This document shows, piece by piece, positions 4,250 through 51,721 of a stretch of 64,000 bases of DNA. Position numbers and translations under genes: made by a program. The DNA lies in contig CAWASW010000015.1 of NCBI GenBank assembly GCA_963784785.1, positions 2,149 through 66,148 on the forward strand. Reading direction: 5' to 3'. The DNA comes from Candidatus Woesebacteria bacterium (GTDB taxonomy: Bacteria; Patescibacteriota; Microgenomatia; UBA8517). Below the pieces are notes generated by a model. That model worked only from the letters and a program-made list of their open reading frames with translations. It had not been told where the DNA came from and ran no database searches. Positions within the stretch are counted from its first letter, which is position 1. Each line of letters starts with the position of its first letter.

Positions 4250-4675
4250 TTATCTGGAGACTTGTACACTAACTGAGTTTTCTGCATTAGCCGCATTAAC
4301 TGTTACTAAGCTATTTGCATCAAGCGCTACTGTGTATCCCGAATTAGATGCCGTTCCTCCTTGAGGATCAAGTGGCATAGATTTCAAATATTTTGCAAGT
4401 GGAACTGATAAATTGTCGCAAGATCCACAGCTCCCAAGTTCTGTTGCTGCTTGTCCTGCTGTAAGTCCTGCTGGAAGTACTCCTTTATTATCAACTACAT
4501 ATTCATGAATAGCTGTTAGAATATTATTAACGTCTGAGAATCTTCTAGAATTTCTTGCATCAGCAAATCTAGTTACTGGATCCAATGCCACAAAAACAAC
4601 TGTTGTCAAAATTGCGATAATTGCGATAACTACAAGTAGCTCGATTAAAGTAAAGCCTTTTTTAATGTTTTTCAT
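4250..4675 (-). CDS. type IV pilin (major-pilin-like paralog 1)
   Basis: Likely start is internal MKNIKKGFTLIELLVVIAIIAIL, a class III prepilin signal (G^FTLIE). Cys pair in the C-terminal half. Ends ...VSR like paralogs 2 and 3. Confidence 0.85.
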   Translation of the reverse strand: MKNIKKGFTLIELLVVIAIIAILTTVVFVALDPVTRFADARNSRRFSDVNNILTAIHEYVVDNKGVLPAGLTAGQAATELGSCGSCDNLSVPLAKYLKSMPLDPQGGTASNSGYTVALDANSLVTVNAANAENSVSVQVSR

Positions 4676-4676
4676 A

Positions 4677-5135
4677 TTATCTAGATACTGTAATAGTCTG
4701 TGCATTCTCTGCCGCACATGCCTTGACTGTTACTATATTATTAGCATCGGCAACTACTGAGAATTTAGTTGTTGATACAGATCCAGCGTCAGGATCAAGT
4801 GGCATAGACTTTAAATATTTTGCAAGTGTTGTAGACAAATCAAGACATGCAGCTGCAGCGCCGGTACAGGCACTTGCTCCTCCAGACGCGCAATTACCTA
4901 GTTGTTTTTCTGTAGTAGTAATACCAGATGGTATAGTACCGTTATTATCAACTGTGTATTCGCTAACGGCAGTTAAAATATTATTTACATCACTCCATCT
5001 TCTAGAATTTCTTGCATCTGCAAATCTCTGTACTGGATCAAGTGCCACAAAAACAACTGTTGCCAAAATTGCGATGATTGCGATAACTACAAGAAGCTCG
5101 ATCAAAGTGAAGCCTTTTTTTATTTGCTTTTGCAT
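4677..5135 (-). CDS. type IV pilin (major-pilin-like paralog 2)
   Basis: MQKQIKKGFTLIELLVVIAIIAILATVVFVALDP...RFADARNSRRWSDVNNILTA conserved N-terminus. Variable Cys-rich middle. C-terminal ...ITVSR. Confidence 0.85.
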   Translation of the reverse strand: MQKQIKKGFTLIELLVVIAIIAILATVVFVALDPVQRFADARNSRRWSDVNNILTAVSEYTVDNNGTIPSGITTTEKQLGNCASGGASACTGAAAACLDLSTTLAKYLKSMPLDPDAGSVSTTKFSVVADANNIVTVKACAAENAQTITVSR

Positions 5136-5140
5136 ATATA

Positions 5141-5818
5141 TTAATATAACCATCCACGAAAAATCATGTCAAGTAGCAATAACATTGTTAAGCTTGAAAT
5201 AGAAACTACACTCCAGCTAAACATCAGAACTATATTAAATACTGCTCTTTTTTTAGAAATTTTTATGTTTAAAGAATTACTATCCTTTCCACTAATATCA
5301 TTTTTTAATGATATTCCAATAATTGGGTTTTCATTTCTTGTTATAGAAATTTCTTCTGGTTCAATAGCGATTATTTCCAATGGTAAACTTTGGAGGATTT
5401 CATTTAGTTCTTTAAACCTATCCTTAACAAATGCGAATGCCAACACGTTTTTCTCCTCCTTGCCTTGCACTGTTTCCTTATAATCCCAATCTTTATCTTC
5501 TAACTGCTCTGGAATAATTTCTGAAATCTTACGATAAATGTATTGCCTTTCCTCGCTACCTTGAATATGGGCAGGTATCGTAAAGTTCACAACATACGCA
5601 AATTCATTTCCTAATAATAGATATGCAGATTTTATTTTACTTTTTTCAATAAGTGCAGATATTGATTCAGATTTTAATCGATGAATGATTTTAGGCTTCT
5701 TTGACATGACAACAGTCGACAATTCAAATGAATTATTTTTTACATAAAGTACATTTACTTTTTTACTAAAAAAACTAAAGTTACCTTGAGACTTGGATTG
5801 TGGCATTATTTTCTGCAT
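5141..5818 (-). CDS. hypothetical protein with C-terminal TM anchor, in pilus locus (possible assembly component)
   Basis: 225-aa ORF with a soluble N-terminal domain and a C-terminal hydrophobic segment (VFNIVLMFSWSVVSISSLTMLLLL). Position is between pilin genes. Confidence 0.4.
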   Translation of the reverse strand: MQKIMPQSKSQGNFSFFSKKVNVLYVKNNSFELSTVVMSKKPKIIHRLKSESISALIEKSKIKSAYLLLGNEFAYVVNFTIPAHIQGSEERQYIYRKISEIIPEQLEDKDWDYKETVQGKEEKNVLAFAFVKDRFKELNEILQSLPLEIIAIEPEEISITRNENPIIGISLKNDISGKDSNSLNIKISKKRAVFNIVLMFSWSVVSISSLTMLLLLDMIFRGWLY

Positions 5819-6245
5819 TGCACGCTGTAATTAATATTACATTATTACTGTTCTTACTAACAGTGTAATATGTTTTTTCTGTACTACCTGCCTTTGGATC
5901 AAGCGGTATAGAATCAAGATATGGTTTCATCTGTCCAGATATATCCAGACATGATGCCTCTGCATTTATACATACAGTATTACATCCACTAGATAAAGTA
6001 CCTAACTGTCTTACTTTTTCGTCGATTCCAGCTGGAAAAGATTTGTTTTTAATTATAAATCTATACATTGCAGTTGATATATTATTGACGTCACTCCACC
6101 TTCTAGCGTTTCTTCCTTCGGCGAATTGAGTTATTGGATCTAGAGACACAAAAACAATTGTTGCTAATATTGCAATAATTGTTAAGACAATTAACATCTC
6201 TAGTAATGTAAACCCCGATTTGTGATTATTTAATTCATAATTCAT
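5781..6245 (-). CDS. type IV pilin (major-pilin-like paralog 3)
   Basis: Likely start MNYELNNHKSGFTLLEMLIVLTIIAIL. Conserved RNARRWSDVNNI. Variable middle with Cys. Ends ...IQVSR. Confidence 0.85.
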   Translation of the reverse strand: MNYELNNHKSGFTLLEMLIVLTIIAILATIVFVSLDPITQFAEGRNARRWSDVNNISTAMYRFIIKNKSFPAGIDEKVRQLGTLSSGCNTVCINAEASCLDISGQMKPYLDSIPLDPKAGSTEKTYYTVSKNSNNVILITACNAENNATIQVSR

Positions 6246-6267
6246 AATTCGTAATTCATATTTGCAT

Positions 6268-19037: not shown

Positions 19038-19232
19038 GATACCGTTGCATAAACGGTCACTTGTTTAGCCTTAAATGATTTGTTGTTTTTCGTTAAAATA
19101 ATAACACTTTCGTCCGATTACTCGGACAATGCTGAAATTGGTTGTAGAAGCGTTTACTTAGTGAAACTACCTTTTTAGGCCGAAAGTATAGTAAAATCAG
19201 TGTGTTTTAGGAGACCGAAATGTAACGGTCTC
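19038..19232 (+). repeat. 195-bp repeat copy A (perfect inverted copy of 30750..30944), abutting the tRNA-Thr 3' end
   Basis: Exact reverse-complement identity to 30750..30944 over 195 bp. Contains hairpins CCGTT-gcata-AACGG and GAGACCG-aaatgtaa-CGGTCTC. The 5' and 3' ends can also pair with each other (ACCGTTGCAT / ATGTAACGGT). Confidence 0.95.
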
Positions 19233-19234
19233 GC

Positions 19235-19744
19235 TCAAAGACGATATTTGCTTTTGAATTCAGATGAAGTCTTTTTCCACAAATTGAGATAATTAATAGC
19301 CATTTTAGCAACAACCACTTTAGCATCGTCTGTACTTTCGAAATCTCTAGGAACTACGAATCTATGTCTAGTTCCTGATCCAGGATTAATTGCATGATAG
19401 GATGTCGGACCTCCTTCCATGCCGCCTTCTATTTTCTTCACAATGACTTCTTTTCCGAGATCAACTTCAATAAACTCCTTGCTCAATTTTTCACTAACCC
19501 AATCAAGATGTTTTTGCCTTCTTCGTATTTTTTCTTGATCTGTCAATTTTATCTCGTCATAATAAGCTTCGAGTGTTTGAAGATGATCGAATATTTTGTT
19601 TTCTGGAGTTTTTTTAGCTACTTTTTCGATTTTGGGTGAACGATGTTCAGCCCCGTCTGTAATCTTTATTTTACTTGGACCAACATACCTCTCCTGTAGA
19701 TCAGCATCACCAGCTTCAACTTCGTTGTAATCACAACCTGTCAT
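19235..19744 (-). CDS. hypothetical protein, possible dsRBD-like C-terminus
   Basis: 169 aa. The C-terminal GGPTSYHAI…RHRFVV…DDAKVVVAKMAINYLNL loosely resembles a dsRNA-binding motif (GPxH…F…AK..AA..AL). Weak. Confidence 0.45.
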   Translation of the reverse strand: MTGCDYNEVEAGDADLQERYVGPSKIKITDGAEHRSPKIEKVAKKTPENKIFDHLQTLEAYYDEIKLTDQEKIRRRQKHLDWVSEKLSKEFIEVDLGKEVIVKKIEGGMEGGPTSYHAINPGSGTRHRFVVPRDFESTDDAKVVVAKMAINYLNLWKKTSSEFKSKYRL

Positions 19745-19745
19745 A

Positions 19746-20597
19746 TTAGTTTAATATATAAATATCCTGTCTTGTGTCAGACACTCCCACTTTTTCTCCT
19801 TCATGTTTCAAGACTCTCTCAAGAGGTCTACATTTCATACATCCTCCTGTTGGGCAGATAAAATGATTAAGTTGCCTTGCAAGTTTAATCCTTCGTGCAA
19901 TTGTTAAAACTTTATCTTTGCTATCTGCCATATTTGGTAAGTTTTTTTCAATTAAATCATCTGATTTGTCTAGATACCAATACGAAGCTTTAGAAACAGG
20001 GCGACCCTGAGTGTTATTAGCTAATAATAAATATATTGGAAGCTGCAGAGATTCTTCACCTTCTTCATTTTTTCCAGTTTTAAAGTCAATTATATGGACA
20101 GAATCTGTGTCTTCTAAATACTCCAACCAATCAATTTTTCCACAAAGTATGATATCGTCTTCTTCTGATAAATAATAATTTGGAATAAAAGTTGACGGTA
20201 TTTTAACTGCTTTATGAAGTATTGGGCCAGGATGCTCTTCAACTCTTTTAAGCATTTGTCTACCTCTCTCTTTGTACTCTTCTTCTTGAGTTGCGTCCTT
20301 AAATCCTCCTAATTTTCCAGATACTTTTTTCCAAGCAACATCAAATTTTTTAAGAAGAGATATTGAAAGCCTATCTTCTACCGGAAGAACAGACAAACCT
20401 TCAACTATCTCATGTACAGATTGGCCTAGAGCGAGTGCTGGTGAAGTAACAGTAACTTTATTTCCTGTACTTGGATCCTTATACACATTTCGTAGATAGT
20501 ATGCTCTTGGGCAAGCAATAAAATCAGCGATAGAAGAATGACTAACCCAAACTGCTTTGTATTTGTCTTTCATAGATAGCGGTAGTATTATATGCAT
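19746..20597 (-). CDS. PD-(D/E)XK nuclease, Cas4/RecB-like with Cys cluster
   Basis: N-terminal Cys (ACPRAYY), the catalytic-like trio GKIDWLE / IIDFKTG / QLPIYLL, and C-terminal CPTGGCMKC (Fe-S ligands). No cas genes nearby. Confidence 0.7.
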   Translation of the reverse strand: MHIILPLSMKDKYKAVWVSHSSIADFIACPRAYYLRNVYKDPSTGNKVTVTSPALALGQSVHEIVEGLSVLPVEDRLSISLLKKFDVAWKKVSGKLGGFKDATQEEEYKERGRQMLKRVEEHPGPILHKAVKIPSTFIPNYYLSEEDDIILCGKIDWLEYLEDTDSVHIIDFKTGKNEEGEESLQLPIYLLLANNTQGRPVSKASYWYLDKSDDLIEKNLPNMADSKDKVLTIARRIKLARQLNHFICPTGGCMKCRPLERVLKHEGEKVGVSDTRQDIYILN

Positions 20598-21323
20598 TAT
20601 ACAATGTCTATCAAACGATATTCCAGATTAGCCTCAGTAGAAGAAAAGAAAAATATAAAAAATGCATATTTTTATATAGTTCTCTCAGTACTAGCTATTA
20701 TAATTCTTATTTTTTTTGGTATTCCATTACTAGTTAAATTTGCAGGATTTGTAGGAGACGTAGCAAAATCTGATAAAGTTGTCGAGATTAATGACACGAC
20801 TCCACCAGCACCTCCTCAATTTGAGGATCTACCAGAATTTACAAACAAAGAAATTTTGGAGATTTCAGGTAAATCAGAAAGTGGTGCTAGCATTTCAATC
20901 AGAACAAATAATAATTCTAGTGAAGTAGTTGCTAACAGTGATGGAGTTTTTAACTTTACTTTTAATCTTGATAAAGGAGAAAATTCAATTGACGCTATCG
21001 CAAAAGATACGAGTGGAAATGAAAGTACACAAACAAAAACATTTAAAATATATTTTGATAATGAAGAACCTAAATTAGAAATAACTTCACCAAAAGACGG
21101 TTCTACATATTTTGGGGCGAGTCAAAGACAGCTTGCAATAAAAGGAACAGTTGATGAGGCAGTAAACTTAAGAATTAATAGCCGAACAGTTGTAGTAAAA
21201 GATGACAACACATTTGTTTTTACCACAACGATGAATGAAGGGGAAAATAAATTCGAAATTATTGCAACAGATCCATCTGGTAACGAATCATCAACTAGTT
21301 TGTCTACTAACTTCAGTTTGTAA
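20592..21323 (+). CDS. membrane-anchored surface protein with tandem Ig-like domains
   Basis: N-terminal TM (IVLSVLAIIILIFFGIPLLV) and two repeats with DAIAKDTSGNES / IIATDPSGNES, a bacterial Ig-like signature. Confidence 0.6.
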   Translation: MHYTMSIKRYSRLASVEEKKNIKNAYFYIVLSVLAIIILIFFGIPLLVKFAGFVGDVAKSDKVVEINDTTPPAPPQFEDLPEFTNKEILEISGKSESGASISIRTNNNSSEVVANSDGVFNFTFNLDKGENSIDAIAKDTSGNESTQTKTFKIYFDNEEPKLEITSPKDGSTYFGASQRQLAIKGTVDEAVNLRINSRTVVVKDDNTFVFTTTMNEGENKFEIIATDPSGNESSTSLSTNFSL

Positions 21324-22355
21324 TCCAATTAAAACAAACAGCCAGAACATTATGTGGGGGTAGAATAGACTATTTGCAAATGTGCTGTGAATTAATACAG
21401 CAAAGAATGAAGAATATAGAATGTTGAATGTAGAATCAAAAGAACTCATAACACGTAACACGAAACTAATAAACAGAACCAATCCAACAATGCCTGTTGT
21501 GGCAAGTAAAAATAAAATTGAAGAATCGGCGCCGTTACATGCATGTGAGTCAATATTTAAATCACTTAAATATAATCTACGTGCAGAACAGATATTGTTA
21601 AACCCTACGCCAAAAAGAGGCGATTTTTTAATAATCTGCAGGGTTTCTGCATAATTAATTAATTTACTATTTCCACTTACAGTTCTGGTTAAAGTTGTCC
21701 CTTCACCTATATTTTTAGGTAAAAATAAAACTATTAATATAAAAAAAATAAGTGCAATATTTTGTTTTTTAAATAGTAAAAATAAACCAGCAACTAAATA
21801 CGATGCCCGAGAATAAGTAAATGCTAAGCTGAATAGCAAAAAATACATAACTTTCGGGAACTTTTCATATGCCAAAACAATTCCTAAAACTAAAATCAGC
21901 CCTAAATAGGTAGGATCTAAAAATGTGCCAACCATCCGTAACAGATGATCATCCCAACCCAAATATTTAAGAGATGTTAAGTCAGGCCAAAGTAAGTATT
22001 GGAGCCAGCCAAAGATAGTCGTTGCGACGGCAACAGATAATAGATTTAAGATTAAAGATTTACGATTTAAGAAATAATTTGAAACGTAAACGGCGATGAG
22101 GGAATAAGAAATGAGACGAACTAAATACAAGATTGAATTAAGATTTACGAATGAAGAATTAAGAAATAGTCCAAACATGCAGGACATAACAAAATAAATG
22201 AAATATCTGTACCACGAGGGGTAAATAGGTTTCTTTAAAACAGTTATTACAGCAAGGATTAAAACCAAAACGTCAAACAGGTTAATAAAACCAATTTTAA
22301 ATAATTGTCCAAAGGGAAATAGACTTAAGATTGCAAAAAATATAATTTTGTCCAT
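21291..22355 (-). CDS. O-antigen ligase / polymerase family membrane protein (Wzy_C-like)
   Basis: About 10 TM helices with a large periplasmic loop. ...FTYSRASYLVAGLFLLF is typical of the O-antigen ligase family. Confidence 0.65.
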   Translation of the reverse strand: MDKIIFFAILSLFPFGQLFKIGFINLFDVLVLILAVITVLKKPIYPSWYRYFIYFVMSCMFGLFLNSSFVNLNSILYLVRLISYSLIAVYVSNYFLNRKSLILNLLSVAVATTIFGWLQYLLWPDLTSLKYLGWDDHLLRMVGTFLDPTYLGLILVLGIVLAYEKFPKVMYFLLFSLAFTYSRASYLVAGLFLLFKKQNIALIFFILIVLFLPKNIGEGTTLTRTVSGNSKLINYAETLQIIKKSPLFGVGFNNICSARRLYLSDLNIDSHACNGADSSILFLLATTGIVGLVLFISFVLRVMSSFDSTFNILYSSFFAVLIHSTFANSLFYPHIMFWLFVLIGLQTEVSRQTS

Positions 22356-22915
22356 GAGAGATATGAATGTAATGATTGCATTATACTAAATACAACATGT
22401 TTTGATTTAACTAAAGTCACAGCAAACTTTCCAATTGGAAAAAATATAATTTTAAATAAGTTGGATCTCTTTCCTTCATCAAGGTTGGCTTTAGCATGAA
22501 GTGTCGAATAGTTGTTTATTTTTAGCAAATAATCTGAAAGATTATTTGCGGTATTGTGAATAATGTAATTATCAAACATCACACCCGCGAGGTGTGATTT
22601 TTTTGGAAGCCAAACCTCATGAACTGCCCTTACCCATTTTCCTGTCCCCTTTCTGACAAGTCGTGTTGGATAATCTATTCCTATTAACTTACCTAAAAAA
22701 TATGTTTTTCTGGGTAATTGATAACTTGAAAATTCATTGGAAATTGGAAATTGGAAATAAGCGGAGCTTGCCACATTGTGATTGGAAATTGACTCATCCG
22801 AGTCAAGGAACAAATTCCATTCACTTTTTGATTTATCAAGAAGTTCATTTCGCTCATGTCCAAAATCTGTAATATTAGGTTTGTTTAGTTGTAAAATATT
22901 TAACATAATAAGCAA
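22325..22915 (-). CDS. glycosyltransferase family 2-like fragment (N-terminally truncated, possible pseudogene)
   Basis: DxD (LFLDSDE) only ~36 aa from the ORF start, which overlaps the flippase 3' end. The Rossmann N-terminal part is missing. Contains the palindrome-encoded SHLAGVMF. Confidence 0.45.
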   Translation of the reverse strand: MLIMLNILQLNKPNITDFGHERNELLDKSKSEWNLFLDSDESISNHNVASSAYFQFPISNEFSSYQLPRKTYFLGKLIGIDYPTRLVRKGTGKWVRAVHEVWLPKKSHLAGVMFDNYIIHNTANNLSDYLLKINNYSTLHAKANLDEGKRSNLFKIIFFPIGKFAVTLVKSKHVVFSIMQSLHSYLSWTKLYFLQS

Positions 22916-24116
22916 TTAGTACCGGCAGCGTTAAAAGTGTAGCAATTATAGTTGCATATCCTGCACCAAGAATCCCAAAAATTTTTATTAATGGATAAAG
23001 AATTGCAATCAAACAAACTGTAGAAAAAAGTGTAATGTAAGTAACTACTTCTTGTTTATCAATTCCTAAAAACAATGAAAAGAAGGAGTTAGAAATCGCT
23101 TTTATTACACCATAAATAGCAAGAATTTGTAGTACAGGTGCTGCTGAGACCCAAGCATTTCCCAAGACAAATTTAATTATCTCAATTGGAAATTTAAAGA
23201 CAAAATATCCAAAAGGAAAAACAAACAAACAGATAATTAGCAAAGTTTTCAAGAATGCATTTTTAAGTCTAATTTTATCCTCTTTTAAACTTACATAAAT
23301 AGGAAAGGTGACTTTATTAAACACTTCACCGACTTCAGACACAGGAAGAGTTGAAATTTTGTATGCTTGTTGATAAATTCCAAGGCTTGCAGTTCCCATA
23401 ACGCGGCCAACTACGATATCGTCAATATTTTGAAATAAATAGTTAGCAACACCTGCTCCTGTTATCCATTTACCTCGGTTAATTACTTTCAATGTTTTCT
23501 CTTTTTCAAAAATAAACTTCGGTGTAGGTTTAAAGTAAATAAATGAAAGAATTACTTCCAAGGCAGTAGATATAATCATGGCATAAATTAAACTGTTCTC
23601 GGATTTTGTAGCAACTCCAATTGAAATTGCAAAAATTGCGTCAACCAAAAAGATCACTGAGTCATACTTAAACTGTTTGTTAAATTCCAAATTTTTTTGA
23701 TATTTAATGCAAGCAGGATTTATAAAACCACGGATAATAGGGACAATTCCTACAAGATATAAAATAAAAGTTGCATCAGTATTTTTAAAATAGTTAGCAA
23801 TATATGGAGCAAAGATAAATATTAAAATTCCAATTAAAAGACCTCGAATTACAGAAACAACCCAAGCAGAATCGATATATTCATCAATTTTTTCTTTTTG
23901 TTGAACTAAAAATATATTAATCCCAGTTTCAGTTAGCATTTCGAGAAATCCCAAAACCAAGGTTGCAATTCCATAAATTCCAAATTGTGCAGGAAGTAAA
24001 ATACGAGCAAGGATCGCAATTTTAATAAGTGCTAAACTTCGCGTAAAAACACGTAACGCCCCCATCCAACTAATTCCGTTTAAAGCAATTTGAAAATATC
24101 CCATGACTAAAACCAA
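22875..24116 (-). CDS. polysaccharide/O-unit flippase (Wzx, MOP superfamily)
   Basis: 413 aa, 12-14 TM helices, flippase-like N-terminus (…ALNGISWMGALRVFTRSLALIKIAILARILLPAQFGIYGIA). Confidence 0.7.
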   Translation of the reverse strand: MVLVMGYFQIALNGISWMGALRVFTRSLALIKIAILARILLPAQFGIYGIATLVLGFLEMLTETGINIFLVQQKEKIDEYIDSAWVVSVIRGLLIGILIFIFAPYIANYFKNTDATFILYLVGIVPIIRGFINPACIKYQKNLEFNKQFKYDSVIFLVDAIFAISIGVATKSENSLIYAMIISTALEVILSFIYFKPTPKFIFEKEKTLKVINRGKWITGAGVANYLFQNIDDIVVGRVMGTASLGIYQQAYKISTLPVSEVGEVFNKVTFPIYVSLKEDKIRLKNAFLKTLLIICLFVFPFGYFVFKFPIEIIKFVLGNAWVSAAPVLQILAIYGVIKAISNSFFSLFLGIDKQEVVTYITLFSTVCLIAILYPLIKIFGILGAGYATIIATLLTLPVLIAYYVKYFTTKQT

Positions 24117-25008
24117 TTATACAACCAAAGTCCGATACAAATTGAAGTATTATTCCCCAAAGACCAGCCTTACATACAGTGTATAGGGTATAGAGAATAG
24201 CATATAGAATAAACAAAACACTGTTTTGAAAAAACAAAGTCACTCCTAATATGTATCGTGCAAAGATGGTTAGTACTTTTAAGTTGTGTGTTCTCCACTT
24301 TTTTACAGGGTGCCACCAAACATCAGACTCTGCGTCCCCTTTTGCATACCTATAAATCTTCAATCCAAAATCGTAAATCGATTCTGGCATTTTCCAATCA
24401 ACAATTGCCTTTTTGGCTACAACAAATTTAGCACCAGCATTAATTAAATTAATATTAAAAACAGAATCCTCCGCAGTGTCGTTTAAATTTTCAGGAAATC
24501 CACCAACTTTTTTAAAGATAGTTTTTGTAAAAGCCATTGATCTAGCAGAAGGCAAAAAATCTGATTTCATGTCTTGCTGTTTTACTCCAAGAAAAACCGC
24601 CTCGGCCTTTTCAAAATTATTTCTCGCAATCATTCGGTAAAATCCGGCCACTACAATATTAAATACACCCCCGAGGTGTACTTTGTTATAGGGTTTAACC
24701 ATATTCTCTAACCAATCTTTGTGTGGCACACACCCAGCATCAGTAATAGCAATAATCTCATTCCTTGCCATTCGTATGGCCAAGTTCCTTCCTGCCGATC
24801 TTGATATCTCTGTTTTGTTTATAAATTGTAAATTTAGTTTTGAATATTGTTTGATAAATGGTGTTTGGTAATTGGTGTTTATTGTTGCATCCGCAACAAT
24901 CACCTCATCCGCTTTTAATGTCTGTTTATCCAAAGCATTAAGCAGTTCTTGAATAGTTTCTTCCTTTTCATTAAAAGTTGTGATACAAACCGAAACTTTT
25001 AATTCCAT
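24070..25008 (-). CDS. glycosyltransferase family 2
   Basis: VSVCITTFNEKE…(DxD) ITDAG, with C-terminal TM helices. Confidence 0.75.
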   Translation of the reverse strand: MELKVSVCITTFNEKEETIQELLNALDKQTLKADEVIVADATINTNYQTPFIKQYSKLNLQFINKTEISRSAGRNLAIRMARNEIIAITDAGCVPHKDWLENMVKPYNKVHLGGVFNIVVAGFYRMIARNNFEKAEAVFLGVKQQDMKSDFLPSARSMAFTKTIFKKVGGFPENLNDTAEDSVFNINLINAGAKFVVAKKAIVDWKMPESIYDFGLKIYRYAKGDAESDVWWHPVKKWRTHNLKVLTIFARYILGVTLFFQNSVLFILYAILYTLYTVCKAGLWGIILQFVSDFGCIIGFSHGIFSNCFKRN

Positions 25009-25802
25009 AATTTTAAATACACCTTGGCGACATCACTCCAAGTTGGGATAGTTTTTAATTTTTTGATTTCTTTCCAGTAGTCTTCCTTTAAAGGATTGTT
25101 TGCAAAGGTTATAATTTTACATACATAACTTTTTGCTTCTAAATATGAAAGATATCCAGATGGAATACAATACTCTGCAGTTTCTAAATACTTTTCAGGA
25201 TTTGATACGTTACTTACATAAATTACTTTATATACTTTTTGTTGTTTTTTTAGCCATTTCTTAAATTCATTTATACCAGTATCAATATCTTGCCTTCCGA
25301 GCCATACTATCGTATTTTTTGTTTTGACTAATGACAAACGACTAATGGCCAACGACTGTGCTGCCCCATAAATTACATAGTCAGACTTGATGCCGTAATA
25401 TTTATTTATATAGTCACCAACAGCAATACTTCCATTACACAAATGATTAGCAATTCGCTTGTTAAAAACTGCCCATATCGGGAGTGGCCATTTTACTTCC
25501 CAACCATGAAAAGTTATATATACTCGTTTCCTCGGAAACGTAAAAATAAATGGTAGGTACCAAATAAAAACATCATGGATATGAATAATACTTGAGTCAG
25601 TAATTAGCTTTCTGTTTTTAAATAGCCAATACCAAATATAAAATAGTCCTAAATATTTTATTTTTGGTGGTTTGATATCTTCCTCAGAAATAATTGTAAA
25701 TTCATAATTCTTAAATCTAAGTTCATAAATCAAATTCTTTATATGTCTCTCCACCCCACCAACATGCGGTTCTTTGTGTTTAGCCAAAAAAAGTATTTTC
25801 AT
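24999..25802 (-). CDS. glycosyltransferase GT4 N-terminal-domain protein (short, possibly truncated)
   Basis: MKILFLAKHKEPHVGGVERHIKNL is typical of the Glyco_trans_4 N-terminal domain. 267 aa is short for a GT4. Confidence 0.5.
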   Translation of the reverse strand: MKILFLAKHKEPHVGGVERHIKNLIYELRFKNYEFTIISEEDIKPPKIKYLGLFYIWYWLFKNRKLITDSSIIHIHDVFIWYLPFIFTFPRKRVYITFHGWEVKWPLPIWAVFNKRIANHLCNGSIAVGDYINKYYGIKSDYVIYGAAQSLAISRLSLVKTKNTIVWLGRQDIDTGINEFKKWLKKQQKVYKVIYVSNVSNPEKYLETAEYCIPSGYLSYLEAKSYVCKIITFANNPLKEDYWKEIKKLKTIPTWSDVAKVYLKLWN

Positions 25803-25832
25803 AATTTATGTCAATCATATTATAATATAGTT

Positions 25833-26588
25833 ATGGTCGATAAACTAAAATATTGGTACAAATTTGTACTACTCTACAAAAATTGGGTTGAATTAATATT
25901 AAATAGGTTAACAAGAAACAACTCTACTAATATCAAATTAAGAAATAATTTTGTGATATCATCATCACATGACTCTCCACTGTCAGTAGTTATGGATGAA
26001 ACGTTTATCCTTGAAAGATACACACAACTTTTCAAAATTAAAAAAGAAGATGTTGTAGTAGATATTGGAGCACATATAGGTGATTTCAGTATATATGCAG
26101 CAATTAAAGGCGCTAAACAAATTTTTGCATTCGAACCAGACCCAACATCCTATCTAGACTTAAAGAACAATGTCTCCGTAAATAACATATCTAATATAAT
26201 ACCTAAAAATATGGCCGTATCTGGCAAAGATGGTTATGCAAATTTTTACACAAATAAAATTAACGGAGGAAATTCACTTATTCATTTTGAAAATAATTCA
26301 AAAACTATCAGAGTAAAAACTATATCGATAAATAGCATTTTAAATGTATGCGGAATTAAAAATATTGACTTTTTAAAGATTGATTGCGAGGGTGGCGAAG
26401 GGCTTATAATTGATGCTGCCAGCAAATCAACTTGGAGGTCAATAGAAAGAATAGCACTTGAATATCATGATAATGTTTCGTCAATTCATCATCTTAAAAT
26501 AAAGGATATTTTCAACAAACTAGGTTATAGTGTATCTATTAAATCATTCGGGAGAAAATTTGGGTACATTTATGCTGCAAGGCAATAA
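25833..26588 (+). CDS. FkbM-family SAM-dependent methyltransferase
   Basis: VVVDIGAHIGDFSIYAA…FAFEP. The start is trimmed to MVDKLKY to avoid overlap. Confidence 0.7.
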   Translation: MVDKLKYWYKFVLLYKNWVELILNRLTRNNSTNIKLRNNFVISSSHDSPLSVVMDETFILERYTQLFKIKKEDVVVDIGAHIGDFSIYAAIKGAKQIFAFEPDPTSYLDLKNNVSVNNISNIIPKNMAVSGKDGYANFYTNKINGGNSLIHFENNSKTIRVKTISINSILNVCGIKNIDFLKIDCEGGEGLIIDAASKSTWRSIERIALEYHDNVSSIHHLKIKDIFNKLGYSVSIKSFGRKFGYIYAARQ

Positions 26589-27356
26589 TTATATGATTTT
26601 GCATATCAGTATATATTGTGATTCGGGTAGATAATCTAACAAAAAATTATCTAAATAGATAATTAAATTATTAACAAAATTTATTTTGGTAAATTTTACA
26701 AATTTATTTAAGATATTGTTAGTAAATAACGCGCTTCTTAAAACCCCCTCTGTCTTATGTATCTTAACTATTTTGATTTTTGTTTTTTGGAACAACAATT
26801 TTATATCGTTTAACGAGTAGCGTCTCAGATGGCCAACTTCTTTATCAAAATTATCTAGTAGTCCCAGCTGATAAAGCGGAGCAGTAATTGACGGCACCGT
26901 GATAATTAGGAATGTATCCTTATTCATCCTTCGCCGAATCAACTTAAGAGTTTTCAAATCATCTTTTGTATGTTCCAAAACTTCAAAACATGTAATCAAA
27001 TTGTATTTCCTAAACAATCCAAATTTCTCTATCGATGTATTGTAAAATCTTACATTATTGAATCCAAATTTATCTTTGTTTAGATTGGCGAACTTAACAG
27101 CATTTCGAGACAATTCAATTCCATCCACCATTAATCCTTTTGAGGCAAAATATAAAGAAATAGTTCCTGTAGCAGACCCTATATCTAAAACATTTCCAAG
27201 TTTGGGTATATATTTTTTTATGTAAGATAATGTATTTCGATATGTAAAGTCATTATCAGTAATTACCCTCTTTTGAAGCCTTATATTTTTATGGTAATTT
27301 TCATATAAATTATTTTTACTCATGCTGTATTTTATCATCCAAAAGCAAGTTGACAA
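26589..27356 (-). CDS. class I SAM-dependent methyltransferase
   Basis: Motif I VLDIGSATGTISLYFASKG, post I DGIELS, motif II FNNVRF. Confidence 0.7.
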   Translation of the reverse strand: MSTCFWMIKYSMSKNNLYENYHKNIRLQKRVITDNDFTYRNTLSYIKKYIPKLGNVLDIGSATGTISLYFASKGLMVDGIELSRNAVKFANLNKDKFGFNNVRFYNTSIEKFGLFRKYNLITCFEVLEHTKDDLKTLKLIRRRMNKDTFLIITVPSITAPLYQLGLLDNFDKEVGHLRRYSLNDIKLLFQKTKIKIVKIHKTEGVLRSALFTNNILNKFVKFTKINFVNNLIIYLDNFLLDYLPESQYILICKII

Positions 27357-27385
27357 AGTTTTTGTTTAGATTTTAAATAAACAAA

Positions 27386-29071
27386 GTGTATATAAAGAAA
27401 TTATTACTTACATTACTTTTACTTTTGTTACCATTTAGTTTTCCGTGTGTTGCACTTGGAGAAGACATGTTTGAAGACAATTTTGAAAGTGGCCAAATTT
27501 TAGACAAATGGCCTTACATTTCGGGTACGTGGAGCAAGGAAAATTTTAATAATTCAGTCTGGTCACGTGTTTCATCAGGTGGATATAGTGACAACTTATT
27601 AGAAATTGATAACTCGTCATGGATTGATTATATTTTTAAAATAGACATATTTAAAATTGAAGGCGAGGATATCAATTTATTCTTTAGAACACAGAATTCA
27701 AGATATTTAAATTTGCCTGGTCACAATTTACCTGCAGCCTATGGGTTACACATGCAGCATAACAGAATAGCTCTTCAGAAATTTACTTCAACTACTGGTA
27801 CAGAATTACAGATAGTATCAGAAGGATTCCCATTTCTGAATTCGACGCTAAAACACGTAGAAATTAAGGTATTGAACAACAACATACAAATATTTATTGA
27901 TGGCAATATTAATCCAATTATTGACTACACTGACAACAACGATCCCTTTTTGAATGGAGGTATAGCAATTGGTTCCATAACTGGATCATCGGGTCAGGGC
28001 GTACGTTTTGATAATATTTTAGTATTGAAATTGCCGGAACATATCCAAACACCAGAACCAACTGTGGCACCGACTGAAAGTCCAACAACTATACCAAGTC
28101 CAACATCCATTCCAACACCAGAACCAACTACCTCGCCGACAGGTTCACCAACGGCGAGTCCAACAAGCACGCCCTCTCCTTCACCAACTACTGTTTCACT
28201 AATTGTCCCAAATTTAAAACAATATTCTCTACCATGGAAAAATAAACTTTATGCTTTTACTAAAAACACTATTCAAGAATATGGATGCGCGTTAACATCA
28301 GCTGCAATGGTTTTGCAGTATCACGGACATAATATTACGCCCGACACATTAAATGATTGGTTAAAAAATCAATCTGATGGATACTTAAGAGGTAATTTAA
28401 TTAATTGGTTAGCAGTTAGTAGATACACTAAACAACACGACTCTACAAGTTCCCCAACTCTTGAATACAAAAGATTAGACCCTACAAATGAAAATCTAAG
28501 TAATGAACTAAACAATAATCGTCCTGCAATTTTGAAGGAAAATGGCCACTTTGTAGTAGCGAAAAGCATATTACCAAATACTTTTGGAATTAATGATCCG
28601 GGATATTCAAACAGAAATGATCTAAATCCATATGGAAACAGTTTTCTTGCAATTAATAGTTATACTCCGACGCATTCTAACCTTTCCTATGTGATGTTTG
28701 TAATTGACTCAAATGTTATTCTTGATTTGTTCAATTCAACAGGTACAAAAATTTCAGCAATTAGCTATGTTGAGGAACCAATTAAAAATTTATTAAACCA
28801 AAGACAAACACTTGGGAAACCAGTAAAGATTGTTCTTTTTGAAAAACCATCTAATGGAAAATACTCCATAAAAGTATCTGGCAAAGGAAATTATCAATTA
28901 GATAGTTATTTGTATGATATATCAGGTAAAGTCACACAAAATAAGTTTGAGGGTAAATTAAAGGGTGGAGACACTGACAAACTATTAATTAATTATTCAA
29001 ATGAGACAAAGAAGCTAAATCATAAACATTGGCTTTTTGAACTTTGGAAACATTTTCGAGAAAGAGACTAA
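27386..29071 (+). CDS. secreted multidomain protein: lectin/jelly-roll-like N-domain, Pro/Thr-rich linker, papain-like (C39-like) peptidase domain
   Basis: Signal peptide MYIKKLLLTLLLLLLPFSFPCVALG. PT linker TPEPTVAPTESPTTIPSPTSIPTPEPTTSPTGSPTASPTSTPSPSPTT. Cys-containing motif YGCALTSAAMVLQYHGH resembles peptidase C39-like. Confidence 0.55.
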   Translation: MYIKKLLLTLLLLLLPFSFPCVALGEDMFEDNFESGQILDKWPYISGTWSKENFNNSVWSRVSSGGYSDNLLEIDNSSWIDYIFKIDIFKIEGEDINLFFRTQNSRYLNLPGHNLPAAYGLHMQHNRIALQKFTSTTGTELQIVSEGFPFLNSTLKHVEIKVLNNNIQIFIDGNINPIIDYTDNNDPFLNGGIAIGSITGSSGQGVRFDNILVLKLPEHIQTPEPTVAPTESPTTIPSPTSIPTPEPTTSPTGSPTASPTSTPSPSPTTVSLIVPNLKQYSLPWKNKLYAFTKNTIQEYGCALTSAAMVLQYHGHNITPDTLNDWLKNQSDGYLRGNLINWLAVSRYTKQHDSTSSPTLEYKRLDPTNENLSNELNNNRPAILKENGHFVVAKSILPNTFGINDPGYSNRNDLNPYGNSFLAINSYTPTHSNLSYVMFVIDSNVILDLFNSTGTKISAISYVEEPIKNLLNQRQTLGKPVKIVLFEKPSNGKYSIKVSGKGNYQLDSYLYDISGKVTQNKFEGKLKGGDTDKLLINYSNETKKLNHKHWLFELWKHFRERD

Positions 29072-29506
29072 AACAACTATTTGACACACCCAAAAAAACA
29101 AGACAAAGTAATTAGTTTTAACAATTGGACCAGTATTATATAGATATAAACTTAGTGAATAAAATCCTATGAAATAAAAATATTCTAGATACTTTGGTAA
29201 TTTAAAATACGGTGCAAATAACGCAACAGATATTGAATAAAATGCAATTCTTAAGAAATTAATCATGTATTCACTCTTACTTCCACAGATTGCACAAACA
29301 TCTGTGTACATGTAAAAAGGATCAAAATCACTATTAAAGATATATCTTCCTAGGATTATCAAAATTGGTTGAATAAATATAAAAAGATATACAAAATAAT
29401 TTAATATTTTACTTGAGTTATTAAAATATAATTGCACAGCCAAAAGACCAAGTGCAATAATTGCAGTTGATCTCTGTATTAGATTAGTAGTTTCAATATT
29501 TAACAT
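29015..29506 (-). CDS. hypothetical integral membrane protein
   Basis: 163 aa with 4-5 TM helices. Overlaps the 3' end of the previous gene. Confidence 0.4.
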   Translation of the reverse strand: MLNIETTNLIQRSTAIIALGLLAVQLYFNNSSKILNYFVYLFIFIQPILIILGRYIFNSDFDPFYMYTDVCAICGSKSEYMINFLRIAFYSISVALFAPYFKLPKYLEYFYFIGFYSLSLYLYNTGPIVKTNYFVLFFWVCQIVVLVSFSKMFPKFKKPMFMI

Positions 29507-29594
29507 ACGATATCTGTCTCCAAAACCTCGGTTACTGAACTAAACAAAATCTGTGCTGTTTGTGATAACTGATTTTCGGGATTTGGCAATCTAA

Positions 29595-30100
29595 AATAAA
29601 AAACACATGGCATAAATGCCATGGTTTTACCCCTTCTGTGGCATACTTTCCACTTGATTTTTAATGTATTTTTTAACCTGGATGAAACTTGTTGCACCCA
29701 CTGATTCTGCAAAGTAGCCATCAGACCAGAATGAGTCACCCCAAAGAAATTCTTCTAACTCTGGAAATTCTTTCCTTAAGATTCTTGATGAACCACCTTT
29801 CAGTTGGTTAACAACTTTTGAGATGGACAAGTTTGGTTGGATTTGTATAAGCATATGTACATGATCATGCAATATTGTAATTTCTTCAATCCACCAGTTG
29901 TTAACCTCACATGCTTTGAAGAATAAGTCTTTAAGTCTTGTAGCTACTTTGCCACGTAATATCCTTTTTCTGTATTTTGGTAAAAATACCAAATGAATCA
30001 TAATTCTGTGCTTTGTGTGTGCACCATGCCAGTACTTTAACATTTCCCTCAAGTATGCCACAAACTATACTTGCTCCACCAGCCTAAAGGCTGGGGATTA
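29595..30100 (-). mobile_element. IS200/IS605-family element (tnpA-only)
   Basis: TnpA gene flanked by subterminal hairpins CATGGCAT-aa-ATGCCATG (29606-29623) and CCAGCCT-aaa-GGCTGG (30078-30095). Confidence 0.7.
29627..30061 (-). CDS. tnpA: IS200/IS605 transposase TnpA (Y1 HUH)
   Basis: HUH motif HDHVHMLI and catalytic Tyr region SDGYFAESVG. Confidence 0.9.
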   Translation of the reverse strand: MAYLREMLKYWHGAHTKHRIMIHLVFLPKYRKRILRGKVATRLKDLFFKACEVNNWWIEEITILHDHVHMLIQIQPNLSISKVVNQLKGGSSRILRKEFPELEEFLWGDSFWSDGYFAESVGATSFIQVKKYIKNQVESMPQKG

Positions 30101-30697
30101 ATGTGCAGAAGATTCAAATATGGTTTTTGATTCAGAAACGATTCTTCTTTCTTGCATATCTCGCTCTATAAACTCGGCGCTGGCGCTATCACCCTCCCTA
30201 CCTGCTCTCCTTTTATCCAAAGTCTCTTGATCGACATCTATATAAACAACCATCGTAGACCTGGATAGTAGATCTGCCGTTTGCTGGTCAAATTGATTGT
30301 GGAAATACTCTCCTCTTGCAATTTTTTCAGCAAGAGTCAAATCAATTCGCCACAACTTATGTTCTCCTTCCAGCACCTTCAGAAGTTCTCTTTTTGAAGT
30401 TCCTTTACGTGAAGTGCCAGTAACAACTGGTTCTTCTGCTAATTCGCCAGCTTGGTGCATTCGAGTAAGTTCATCTTCCGTACAAAAATGATAATGGACA
30501 TGATCAATTTCTTGAGATCCGGTTTTTTGGTCTTTTCTCGGTTTCCTTGTTGCATGAGTTACTACTCTGGTTAAACCATATCTCTTGATATCTAAAGAAT
30601 CTAATTCATCGATTATTGAATCCTTACCTGATCCTGACGGACCAGTTATTATAATAATCTTTCCAGATTTTGAGGCAAACTCATTTGTTTCGTTCAT
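30098..30697 (-). CDS. gmk: guanylate kinase-like P-loop kinase
   Basis: GPSGSGKDS P-loop. THATRKPRKDQKTGSQEIDHVHYHF resembles the Gmk TTRxPRxGE…G.dYhF motif. Locally higher GC (~43%) than surroundings. Likely start MNETNEF. Confidence 0.6.
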   Translation of the reverse strand: MNETNEFASKSGKIIIITGPSGSGKDSIIDELDSLDIKRYGLTRVVTHATRKPRKDQKTGSQEIDHVHYHFCTEDELTRMHQAGELAEEPVVTGTSRKGTSKRELLKVLEGEHKLWRIDLTLAEKIARGEYFHNQFDQQTADLLSRSTMVVYIDVDQETLDKRRAGREGDSASAEFIERDMQERRIVSESKTIFESSAH

Positions 30698-30749
30698 TAT
30701 TCTTAGATTATAGGGGCAAGAATACAAAATTTAAATAGTAATAAGTGGA

Positions 30750-30944
30750 GAGACCGTTACATTTCGGTCTCCTAAAACACACTGATTTTACTATACTTTC
30801 GGCCTAAAAAGGTAGTTTCACTAAGTAAACGCTTCTACAACCAATTTCAGCATTGTCCGAGTAATCGGACGAAAGTGTTATTATTTTAACGAAAAACAAC
30901 AAATCATTTAAGGCTAAACAAGTGACCGTTTATGCAACGGTATC
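30750..30944 (-). repeat. 195-bp repeat copy B (inverted copy of 19038..19232), abutting the tRNA-Val 3' end
   Basis: Exact reverse complement of copy A, in the same position relative to its tRNA. Confidence 0.95.
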
Positions 30945-30949
30945 ATAAG

Positions 30950-31021
30950 TGGATGACGTTGGGATTGAACCAACAGCCTCTTCGATGTGAACGAAGCGCT
31001 CTACCACTGAGCTAGTCATCC
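30950..31021 (-). tRNA. tRNA-Val (anticodon CAC)
   Basis: Minus-strand cloverleaf. Acceptor GGATGAC/GTCATCC, D arm GCTC-AGTGGTAGAGC, anticodon stem CTTCG/CGAAG with loop TTCACAT, T arm GTTGG-TTCAATC-CCAAC. Confidence 0.85.
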
Positions 31022-50573: not shown

Positions 50574-51721
50574 AAGCTGCTATTTCCTGCACCCATAACA
50601 ACAATTACTTCGTAATTGCAATTTTCAATTTCCAGTTTCCAATTTCCAATAAATTTCTCGATATCCTCAACAACTCTTATATTCTCGTGTTCGGATATTT
50701 TGGCAACATCTTCAATGGTTATAGTTGGATCCGTTTCATCACGTGCTTTAAAAATTGGGCCAATAATTACAGAATCGACACTATCAAATGCATTTTTATA
50801 CAATGATAATAATGCCTTTGTACGTTTATATCCATGAGGTTCAGCGACTGCCAATATTTTTGCAGTAGGATATTTTTCCCTAAGCCCTTCAAGAGTTGTC
50901 TTTATAGCAGTTGGGTGATGAGCATAATCATCATAAATAATTGTATTTTTAACTTTTCCAATTTGTTCCATTCTTCGTCCTATTCCTTCAAAATTTTCTA
51001 GGGACTTTACTATTTCCTCACTTCTAATTCCTAATTGTTGCCCTACTAGATACGCCATATTTGCATTTTTTTGATTATGGTCACCAAAGACTTTTAAATT
51101 AAATTGTTTTAACAAACTATCATTTTGAGAAAACAAAATTCCTCCTTGCTTCAGATTATTTTTGAATTTGTTAAAACTTTCTGCTAACTGTTTTTCATCT
51201 TTAAAATAATCGGGGTGATCAAATTCAATATTGTTAATTACTATTAGATCAGGTTTATAGTGTAAAAAGTTGTCATTAAATTCGTCGGCTTCAATAACAA
51301 AATATTTGCTTTTTCCAAATCTTGAGTTTCCACCCCACTCAGGGACATTGGCTCCTATTACTGCTGTTGGATCTAGTCCATTATCTTCTAAAATTTTACC
51401 TACCATTGCGGTAGTTGTAGATTTACCATGAGTTCCTGCAATAGCTATCACAAACTTATCCATCATTAGATATTTACCAACGAACTCCTCCCATGTTACC
51501 ATCATATTTTTAGCTATAGCCTGAAGAAGTTCAGGCTCTGACTTAGATTGATAAAGTACAGCAGGAGAAACAACGAGAAGATCAATACCATCTAGATGTT
51601 TTTTGTCATGGCCACCAGATTTTAGATCACAGCCAGTTACTTCATACCCCATTTTGGAAGCAAGCGAGGCTACACCACTCATTCCGCTGCCTGAGATACC
51701 CATCATATGGATTCTTTTCAT
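50537..51721 (-). CDS. murC: UDP-N-acetylmuramate--L-alanine ligase
   Basis: MKRIHMMGISGSGMSGVASLA…; AGTHGKSTTTAM. Confidence 0.85.
   Translation of the reverse strand: MKRIHMMGISGSGMSGVASLASKMGYEVTGCDLKSGGHDKKHLDGIDLLVVSPAVLYQSKSEPELLQAIAKNMMVTWEEFVGKYLMMDKFVIAIAGTHGKSTTTAMVGKILEDNGLDPTAVIGANVPEWGGNSRFGKSKYFVIEADEFNDNFLHYKPDLIVINNIEFDHPDYFKDEKQLAESFNKFKNNLKQGGILFSQNDSLLKQFNLKVFGDHNQKNANMAYLVGQQLGIRSEEIVKSLENFEGIGRRMEQIGKVKNTIIYDDYAHHPTAIKTTLEGLREKYPTAKILAVAEPHGYKRTKALLSLYKNAFDSVDSVIIGPIFKARDETDPTITIEDVAKISEHENIRVVEDIEKFIGNWKLEIENCNYEVIVVMGAGNSSLWAKQVLNNLQH

Follow-up and report, generated by a model that had tools for sequence, protein, structure and literature searches.

Identical 195-bp repeats behind two tRNA genes of a Woesebacteria genome: probable miniature elements of an insertion sequence lineage that appears to favor tRNA 3' flanks

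Two identical sequences of 195 bp lie behind two different tRNA genes in the stretch of DNA analyzed here, 64 kb of a Candidatus Woesebacteria genome (positions 2,149 to 66,148 of contig CAWASW010000015.1, assembly GCA_963784785.1), which we refer to as the window. ARAGORN and Rfam agree that the window contains exactly two tRNA genes, Thr(CGT) and Val(CAC). In a repeat search of the whole window, 19038-19232 on the plus strand matched the reverse complement of 30750-30944, read on the minus strand, at 195 of 195 bases, and this pair is the sole long repeat of its kind in the window. The repeat starts 6 nt past the discriminator base of tRNA-Thr and 5 nt past that of tRNA-Val, in the same orientation relative to each tRNA. 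An initial annotation, made from the sequence alone, had described this exact inverted pair correctly and had read it as the boundary of an 11.5-kb accessory island, possibly an invertible one. Our analysis leads to a different interpretation, that the repeats are very probably two independent recent insertions of a miniature inverted-repeat transposable element (MITE) derived from an insertion sequence (IS) of Patescibacteria, about 1.19 kb long and of IS256 type. The features that bear on this interpretation are the following.

18961..19032, plus strand: tRNA-Thr(CGT), intact, target of copy A (ARAGORN; Rfam tRNA, 61.2 bits; MITE-free ortholog in the related loci L035/L036)
19029..19037, plus strand: target-site duplication of copy A, tRNA-proximal, GCTCAAAGG, matching 19233-19241 at 8/9 positions and taking in the final 3 nt of the tRNA and the discriminator region
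19038..19232, plus strand: probable MITE copy A, 195 bp, with a left end (19038-19069) and a right-end part (19151-19232) homologous to the ends of the parent IS
19038-19050 and 19220-19232, plus strand: terminal inverted repeats of copy A, from comparison of the ends
19233..19241, plus strand: target-site duplication of copy A, distal, GCTCAAAGA, from comparison of the flanks
30741..30749, minus strand: target-site duplication of copy B, distal, TCCACTTAT, matching 30945-30953 at 9/9 positions
30750..30944, minus strand: probable MITE copy B, 195 bp, identical to copy A, with left end 30913-30944 and right-end part 30750-30831
30945..30953, minus strand: target-site duplication of copy B, tRNA-proximal, TCCACTTAT, overlapping the last bases of tRNA-Val
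30949..31021, minus strand: tRNA-Val(CAC), intact, target of copy B (ARAGORN; Rfam; MITE-free ortholog in L033/L034)

Ends, flanks and copies of the repeat

The repeat starts with GATACCGTTGCAT and finishes with ATGTAACGGTCTC, and these ends form imperfect terminal inverted repeats of 13 bp, in which GATACCGTTGCAT and the reverse complement of the right end, GAGACCGTTACAT, pair at 11 of 13 positions. The complementarity of GATACCGTTGCAT and ATGTAACGGTCTC pointed out in the initial annotation is thus real, and in the window these terminal sequences are found only in the four expected places. Each copy is in addition flanked by a direct duplication of its own, GCTCAAAGG and GCTCAAAGA around copy A (8/9) and TCCACTTAT on both sides of copy B (9/9), where a 9/9 match would arise by chance with a probability of 3.8e-6. 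The duplicated bases take in the last 3-4 nt of the tRNA, and because the duplication covers the tRNA end, the tRNA is restored intact on the proximal side. Matched flanking duplications of this kind are a signature of transposition, and not of an RNA gene or of site-specific integration. These per-copy duplications of 8-9 bp had gone unnoticed initially, as had the conserved synteny and the undistinctive GC content of the enclosed genes that are described below.

Between its ends the repeat has no open reading frame (ORF) of at least 60 aa and no similarity to transposases, which agrees with its first description as non-coding. It had not been recognized as a known RNA family either, and no Rfam model matches the 195 bp at the gathering threshold or at E<=10, apart from hits at chance level. 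The predicted fold of the 195-mer has a free energy of -54.6 kcal/mol (z = -3.15 versus shuffled controls). Terminator-like hairpins are present on both strands of the MITE: at 19041-19066 (+) a left-end hairpin followed by a T-rich tail stands right behind the tRNA and is weakly terminator-like, and at 19110-19129 (-) an 8-bp hairpin, CGTCCGATTACTCGGACA, occupies the opposite strand. A promoter scan of the MITE found none, and transcription from the tRNA promoters probably reads through into it.

Additional copies were sought with the exact first 21 nt of the repeat, which we scanned against a set of one genome per species and against metagenomes. The scan of the one-genome-per-species set returned a single match, a third copy identical at 195/195 positions on contig CAVZPH010000003.1 of a metagenome-assembled genome (locus L001). 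Here the MITE lies 9 nt past the discriminator of tRNA-Met(CAT) with TAATTCG(G) on either side, a duplication of 7-8 bp. This brings the tally of the 195-mer to three copies behind three tRNAs in two assemblies, all of them identical. The link to tRNA 3' ends that had been noted from the window alone therefore holds in other genomes, at L001 and at ten tRNA sites in all, and the repeat is indeed a recently duplicated one. Directly beside the MITE behind tRNA-Met there is a second zinc-finger transposase gene (L001 884-1907, minus strand), which is frameshifted and belongs to another lineage; its product is 23% identical (E = 0.01) to the transposase family of the parent IS introduced below.

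The metagenome scan matched two loci, L002 and L003, the first of which leads to the parent IS. At L003 a solo IS left end of about 40 nt (2161-2200) follows a long-arm tRNA at a distance of 5 nt, lacks a right end in its vicinity and is probably a deletion remnant. The 549-kb contig that carries it (L034) comes from a relative of the window genome, with 70% identity in IMPDH. We noticed that the right flank of copy A, GCTCAAAGACGATA, resembles the sequence after this solo left end, GCTTCAAAGACGATA, and treated the resemblance as chance, as the neighboring genes differ. Viral contigs, which were scanned by the pattern of terminal inverted repeat, gap and terminal inverted repeat and also by transposase, gave no match.

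The parent insertion sequence

The left end at L002 is identical to that of the MITE at 30/32 positions and leads into a minus-strand transposase ORF with a CPKC...CKIC zinc ribbon, and the contig terminates in sequence resembling the right part of the MITE. This transposase is recognized by Pfam Transposase_mut (PF00872) with 39.5 bits versus a cut-off of 21 (E = 4e-10). One extra A would be needed in the run ATGAAAAAAGAG (L002 1150-1175) to join the ATG with the zinc-ribbon frame, and this break is either an indel in a contig of coverage 3 or a programmed -1 frameshift site. Homologs of the transposase number 703 at E<=1e-3 and are found mostly on contigs of 1.1-1.3 kb, a length in keeping with a repeat at which assemblies break. 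PF00872 was precomputed on most of the 120 homologs listed. Many of the database homologs have been called without the N-terminal zinc ribbon, and measure 290-300 aa versus about 350 aa.

A complete copy of the parent IS, 1188 bp from end to end, is present at L004, and its alignment with the 195-mer reveals how the two are related. MITE positions 1-32 align with the left end of the parent at 27-30 of 32 positions (versus L004 and L002), and MITE positions 114-195 align with parent positions 1107-1188, the region upstream of the transposase start, with about 80% identity over 82 nt. For the central 80 nt of the MITE, the alignment found no counterpart in the parent IS. MITE-like termini are also seen in L005, L019, L020 and L030-32, and full-length IS copies are bounded by perfect 9-bp duplications, which read CAATCGATG in L005-8, GAGATTTGG in L019, TCTGCGGAG in L009 and AATTTGGTC in L030.

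The only gene of the parent IS encodes a transposase of about 350 aa, with an N-terminal 4-Cys zinc ribbon followed by a DDE domain of Mutator/IS256 type. Among 19 aligned homologs, D108, D168, C189xxH192, E277 and the four N-terminal Cys are invariant. IS256/MuDR-type DDE transposases are characterized by a C/DxxH motif after the second D, and the arrangement of D108, D168 and E277 with C189xxH192 follows the same DDE + CxxH pattern (PMC3706591). These motifs and profile matches place the parent IS in the IS256/Mutator superfamily, as a distant and uncurated lineage rather than a typical IS256.

The 195-bp repeats thus combine small size, lack of coding capacity, terminal inverted repeats, target-site duplications, ends homologous to an IS, copies at several loci and empty sites in relatives (see below). 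Some observations count against their derivation from an IS256-type parent or limit what can be drawn from it. Scores with the NCBIfam models fall far short of the cut-off of 150 bits, at 58 for IS256 and 42-49 for its Zn-binding variant. Duplication length varies between copies, at 9 bp, 8 bp (9 if one mismatch is allowed) and 7-8 bp. The searches yielded no more than three MITE copies, which are all identical and give no measure of the age and diversity of the MITE. An autonomous copy was not seen in the window's own genome; the window makes up 64 of the 115 kb of its contig. Within these 64 kb there is no transposase of the parent IS family, which means that the MITE copies must be mobilized in trans, and we infer that the transposase responsible is encoded elsewhere in the genome.

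In the mechanism that we propose, the MITE would be a parent IS with its interior deleted, keeping about 32 bp of the left end and about 82 bp of the right end. The retained ends would allow it to be mobilized by transposase supplied in trans, and staggered cuts 7-9 bp apart in the target would give each copy its own short direct duplication.

The enclosed genes and other explanations of the repeats

The DNA between the two copies falls into a conserved gene block and a few inserts that are specific to the window.

19235..29506, no strand assigned: conserved gene block, outside the mobile element (Pfam; synteny in L033, L034, L035 and L036)
29500..30727, minus strand: window-specific inserts at the tRNA-Val 3' flank (Pfam; absent at this position in L033/L034)
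29627-30061, minus strand: IS200-type Y1 transposase, TnpA (Pfam)
30098-30727, minus strand: gmk-like P-loop gene (Pfam)

The block comprises a 169-aa ORF, a PD-(D/E)XK nuclease, an Ig-like/Glucodextran_B protein, Wzy_C, a flippase, GT2, GT4, two methyltransferases, a C39 peptidase and a 163-aa ORF. The gene content given in the initial annotation proved essentially right in Pfam searches, which identified the PD-(D/E)XK nuclease, Wzy_C, flippase, GT2, GT4, two methyltransferases, C39 peptidase, IS200 TnpA and gmk-like gene. The last two are flanked by the conserved 163-aa ORF on one side and MITE copy B on the other, and are unrelated to the MITE. Three different inserts, the MITE, the IS200 and the gmk-like gene, have thus gathered at the 3' flank of tRNA-Val. 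A link between the repeats and the nearby IS200 was ruled out, since the transposase family found is a different one and IS200/IS605 elements have no terminal inverted repeats and make no target duplications.

Relatives of the window genome were found by homology search with the window IMPDH; they show 74% and 70% identity and are labeled Patescibacteria/Microgenomates. Gene order and orientation in these relatives (L033/L035 and L034) are as in the window. The shared order runs from an FAD-oxidoreductase and tRNA-Thr(CGT) (+) through PD-(D/E)XK, Ig-like/Glucodextran_B, Wzy_C, flippase, GT2, GT4, the methyltransferases, C39 peptidase and an ORF of 163-173 aa to tRNA-Val(CAC) (-), IMPDH, signal peptidase (S26), ParB, L27 and L21. 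No MITE is found behind the orthologous tRNA-Thr or tRNA-Val in L033-L036, where the tRNA runs straight into the next gene, and by this comparison the orthologous tRNA flanks are empty sites. GC content inside the segment is 0.295-0.35 versus 0.29-0.40 outside, so the suggested comparison of 19.2-30.7 kb with its flanks brought out no distinct GC, and in the ORFs from 16.5 to 32.7 kb Pfam detected no domain of a recombinase, resolvase or integrase.

Since repeat-free relatives have this gene set, likewise ordered and oriented, between the same bounding tRNAs, and since its composition does not stand out, the idea of an accessory island did not hold up. The enclosed 11.5 kb would seem to be ordinary, vertically inherited genes. 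Two convergent ancestral tRNAs and an insertion process that is orientation-specific suffice to place perfect inverted repeats around 11.5 kb.

That same geometry is what had suggested an invertible segment, in which the 11.5-kb glycan cassette flips by means of the perfect inverted repeats in a phase-variation-like or RecA-mediated manner. Homologous recombination can act on perfect 195-bp inverted repeats separated by 11.5 kb, and full IS copies at tRNA-Ser and tRNA-Pro show exchanged flanks in related populations, which indicates that copies may recombine. At the loci concerned (L009-L018, the P0077 loci), one IS occurs in three flank combinations, with the tRNA-Ser(GGA) duplication on both sides in L009, the Ser duplication on one side and tRNA-Pro(CGG) on the other in L012/L014, and the reciprocal in L015/L017. 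These flanks show either that two IS copies recombined or that the assembly is chimeric across the 1.2-kb repeat, and chimeras would remove them as support. In the window, each copy has kept its matched duplication, which an odd number of inversions would have split; the segment has the orientation of the repeat-free relatives, which is the ancestral one; there is no invertase or integrase gene in or beside the interval; and no promoter would obviously be repositioned relative to genes by inversion. We therefore consider an invertible segment quite unlikely, while low-frequency (RecA-mediated) recombination between perfect repeats of 195 bp can occur. Slightly more room is left for a functional structured RNA, either a 195-nt non-coding RNA gene or a processed 3' trailer co-transcribed with the tRNA, whose identity would be maintained by selection. 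The fold is stabler than that of shuffled sequences, the repeat follows tRNA genes directly on the same strand, its sequence is identical in two genomes, and terminator-like hairpins are present. The closing stem of this fold, however, is the terminal inverted repeat of an IS, the target duplications show arrival by transposition, and orthologous tRNAs in relatives do without the repeat. Nor does any Rfam family match even at the permissive E value given above; the parent IS has nothing corresponding to the central 80 nt, and the searches turned up no diverged homologs. Recent transposition would itself leave identical copies, and the three at hand offer no variation for covariation analysis. 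Passive read-through from the tRNA is likely but is no function by itself, and a structured RNA gene is in our view quite unlikely.

Transposition of a MITE also accounts better for the locus than an origin of the repeats as boundaries of an integrated element, whether as att-like remnants or as two MITEs that carried the 11.5 kb as a unit. The 3' ends of tRNAs are classic integration sites, and the IS200 and the gmk-like gene, of slightly higher GC, sit just inside copy B. An att remnant is contradicted by flanking duplications that differ between the copies and by the inverted arrangement of the copies, which leave no common att core; in addition, no integrase is present, GC is not distinct, and relatives with 70-74% identity in IMPDH share the synteny of the enclosed genes and of both tRNAs. 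The composite transposon was ruled out because the outer flanks of the pair do not match and form no duplication, each copy having its own. Integrated elements of either kind are accordingly very improbable here. Perfect identity of the copies on a metagenome-derived contig could finally point to an assembly artifact, in which one copy was spuriously duplicated, the scenario that the initial annotation had named as its own refutation. The unique flanks and duplications differ between the copies, the ends recur in a parent IS family, and an independent third copy stands behind a third tRNA, that of Met, in another assembly, so that this scenario is excluded for practical purposes.

Some other features of the window were recorded alongside. 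Short intergenic tandem heptamers occur at 6231-6260, 9558-9595 and 50619-50650 (TAATTCA x4.3, TTCATAC x5.4 and CAATTTC x4.6, respectively), and three diverged copies of about 206 nt lie at 4461-6224 within a run of small minus-strand ORFs, which are paralogous small genes. Genes for the 23S rRNA intervening-sequence protein (PF05635), which are typical of genomes of the candidate phyla radiation (CPR), are found near tRNA/IS loci, at 17836-18264 (-) in the window and at 1283-1831 in L014.

Placement behind tRNA genes and comparison with known systems

For the MITE and the parent family together, 14 independent left-end junctions were available, all recovered via the transposase or the end sequence and never via tRNAs. 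Ten of these 14 lie in a tRNA 3' flank, 3-23 nt past ten different tRNA genes, at the following distances from the discriminator.

+3: tRNA-His
+4: tRNA-Ser(GGA)
+5: tRNA-Val
+5: tRNA of L003
+6: tRNA-Thr
+6: tRNA-Pro(CGG)
+7: tRNA-Pro(GGG)
+9: tRNA-Met
+12: tRNA-Gln(TTG)
+23: tRNA-Gln(CTG)

The probability of at least 10 of 14 junctions at a tRNA is 3e-26, and still 3e-16 on the assumption that insertion is tolerated in no more than 10% of the genome. As the null for this enrichment we used the fetched loci themselves, which are already rich in tRNAs, and the test is for this reason conservative. Orientation is biased 10:1 as well (10/11 junctions, P = 0.006), the element pointing its left end, on the 3' side of the transposase gene, toward the tRNA. 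Selection for harmless sites would not by itself account for a spacing of 3-9 nt or for a constant polarity, and we infer from them that the preference for tRNA flanks is imposed by target choice of the transposition machinery rather than by selection.

Several observations argue against a strict rule. Four of the 14 junctions (L002, L005, L019, L023) are away from tRNAs, two of them beside a hairpin of 7-10 bp, and at two tRNA sites the spacing is as wide as 12 and 23 nt, so tRNA flanks are preferred without a strict rule of distance. At one tRNA-His site (L031/L032) the IS is found in either orientation, with no duplications, and several P0112 loci lack matching duplications, owing to recombination or chimeric assembly. 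The sample of sites is also small and drawn from metagenome assemblies. The tRNA-His junction reads identically in both loci (…cacccaccctg|) and is followed by the IS left end in one sample (L031 3023) and by the right end in another (L032 901), and this is the sole exception in orientation. IS copies off or far from tRNAs adjoin stable hairpins, at L005 3935-3975 (10-bp stem), L023 ~1493-1514 (7-bp) and L021 2746-2765 (5-bp).

As to what the transposase might recognize, the duplicated 9-mers showed no evident consensus among 8 sites, and a comparison of the IS ends with the tRNA T-arm found no convincing likeness. We propose that the 9-bp target would straddle or directly follow the discriminator position of the tRNA gene, with the left end of the element facing the tRNA and the duplication rebuilding the tRNA 3' end. 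The tRNA gene could be recognized through a DNA feature of the T-arm/acceptor, through DNA structure adjacent to a stem or through coupling to transcription. Our best guess is that the Zn-ribbon/N-terminal region may read either a T-arm/acceptor feature or the DNA next to a stable stem, and there is a hint that a stem-adjacent DNA feature is part of transposase recognition. Taking these points together, we lean toward the view that a lineage of small, single-gene IS of the IS256 superfamily in Patescibacteria, together with its MITEs, has evolved to target tRNA genes class-wide at their 3' boundary. It would do so for any isoacceptor and in a specific orientation, through a staggered cut of 9 bp across the discriminator after which the tRNA is still intact, and with neither an accessory selector protein nor a guide RNA.

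The 195-mer is ordinary in anatomy, and what appears to be new is an uncurated IS lineage that apparently targets tRNA 3' flanks as a class. The repeats very probably define no island, switch or new RNA, and the glycan cluster is vertically inherited. Public metagenomes hold at least 703 homologs of this IS lineage, most on contigs broken at the IS, and inserts of several kinds accumulate in the tRNA flanks of these tiny CPR genomes. Should the 350-aa transposase itself carry the preference, the IS would be a compact natural system for safe-site insertion and a new case for target selection by DDE transposases, and it would account for some of the rearrangements and broken assemblies seen beside tRNAs of CPR genomes. 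If class-wide targeting is true, it would be a bacterial counterpart of the "safe-haven" targeting of the Ty3/TRE/Dada type, with a recognition that is possibly structural or transcription-coupled. A literature search on IS or MITE insertion next to bacterial tRNA genes found only integrases, CRISPR-associated transposons (CASTs) and the eukaryotic Dada elements; its coverage was incomplete, and an earlier description may exist.

Bacterial MITEs derived from IS include MITEAba12 and the Correia elements. IS-derived MITEs of bacteria have been surveyed (PMC11602168). Like these, the 195-mer is short and non-coding, has terminal inverted repeats, target-site duplications and ends shared with an autonomous IS, occurs in identical copies at unrelated loci and can fold into a long hairpin. 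Unlike them, all three of its copies are 5-9 nt from a tRNA 3' end in one orientation. Members of the IS256 family have 8-9-bp duplications, terminal inverted repeats and a single ORF in about 1.2-1.5 kb (ISfinder values). The parent IS resembles IS256/Mutator elements, including the "variant Zn-binding type" of NCBIfam and the IS1249 groups, in its single ORF in about 1.2 kb, imperfect terminal repeats of about 26 bp, 8-9-bp duplications, DDE with CxxH after the second D, PF00872 match above threshold and N-terminal 4-Cys domain. It differs in a short transposase (about 350 aa) that scores far below the NCBIfam cut-offs, and IS256 itself is not known for targeting tRNA flanks. Islands linked to tRNAs share with the MITE the position at the tRNA 3' end and short direct repeats overlapping that end; here, in contrast, there is no integrase, the repeats differ per site and form no att core, and the enclosed genes are core synteny.

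Among bacteria, insertion linked to tRNAs is known for integrases and for those Tn7-like/CAST elements that possess dedicated selectors, and the closest analogs in function are found in eukaryotes. Dada elements are eukaryotic DNA transposons whose DDE transposase, distantly related to IS256/MuDR, has the C/DxxH motif, and which are specific for tRNA and other small-RNA genes with duplications of 6-7 bp (PMC3706591, Kojima & Jurka 2013). A given Dada family integrates within a single, specific multicopy RNA gene, always at the same sequence, and thereby disrupts that gene (PMC3706591), whereas the IS/MITE described here lands after many different single-copy tRNA genes, at a variable 3-12 nt, and leaves the genes intact. 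Insertion beside the gene, biased in position and orientation, is a trait that it shares with several other elements. The yeast retroelements Ty3/Ty1, the Dictyostelium retroelements TRE5/TRE3 and Tn7-like/CAST elements use tRNA genes as a "safe haven" in this manner, the eukaryotic ones with the aid of Pol III factors and Tn7-like/CAST elements with TnsD/TniQ or a guide RNA plus TnsC. Type I-B CASTs insert downstream of tRNA genes (PMC11915506). The parent IS differs from all of these in having one small DDE transposase and no accessory genes.

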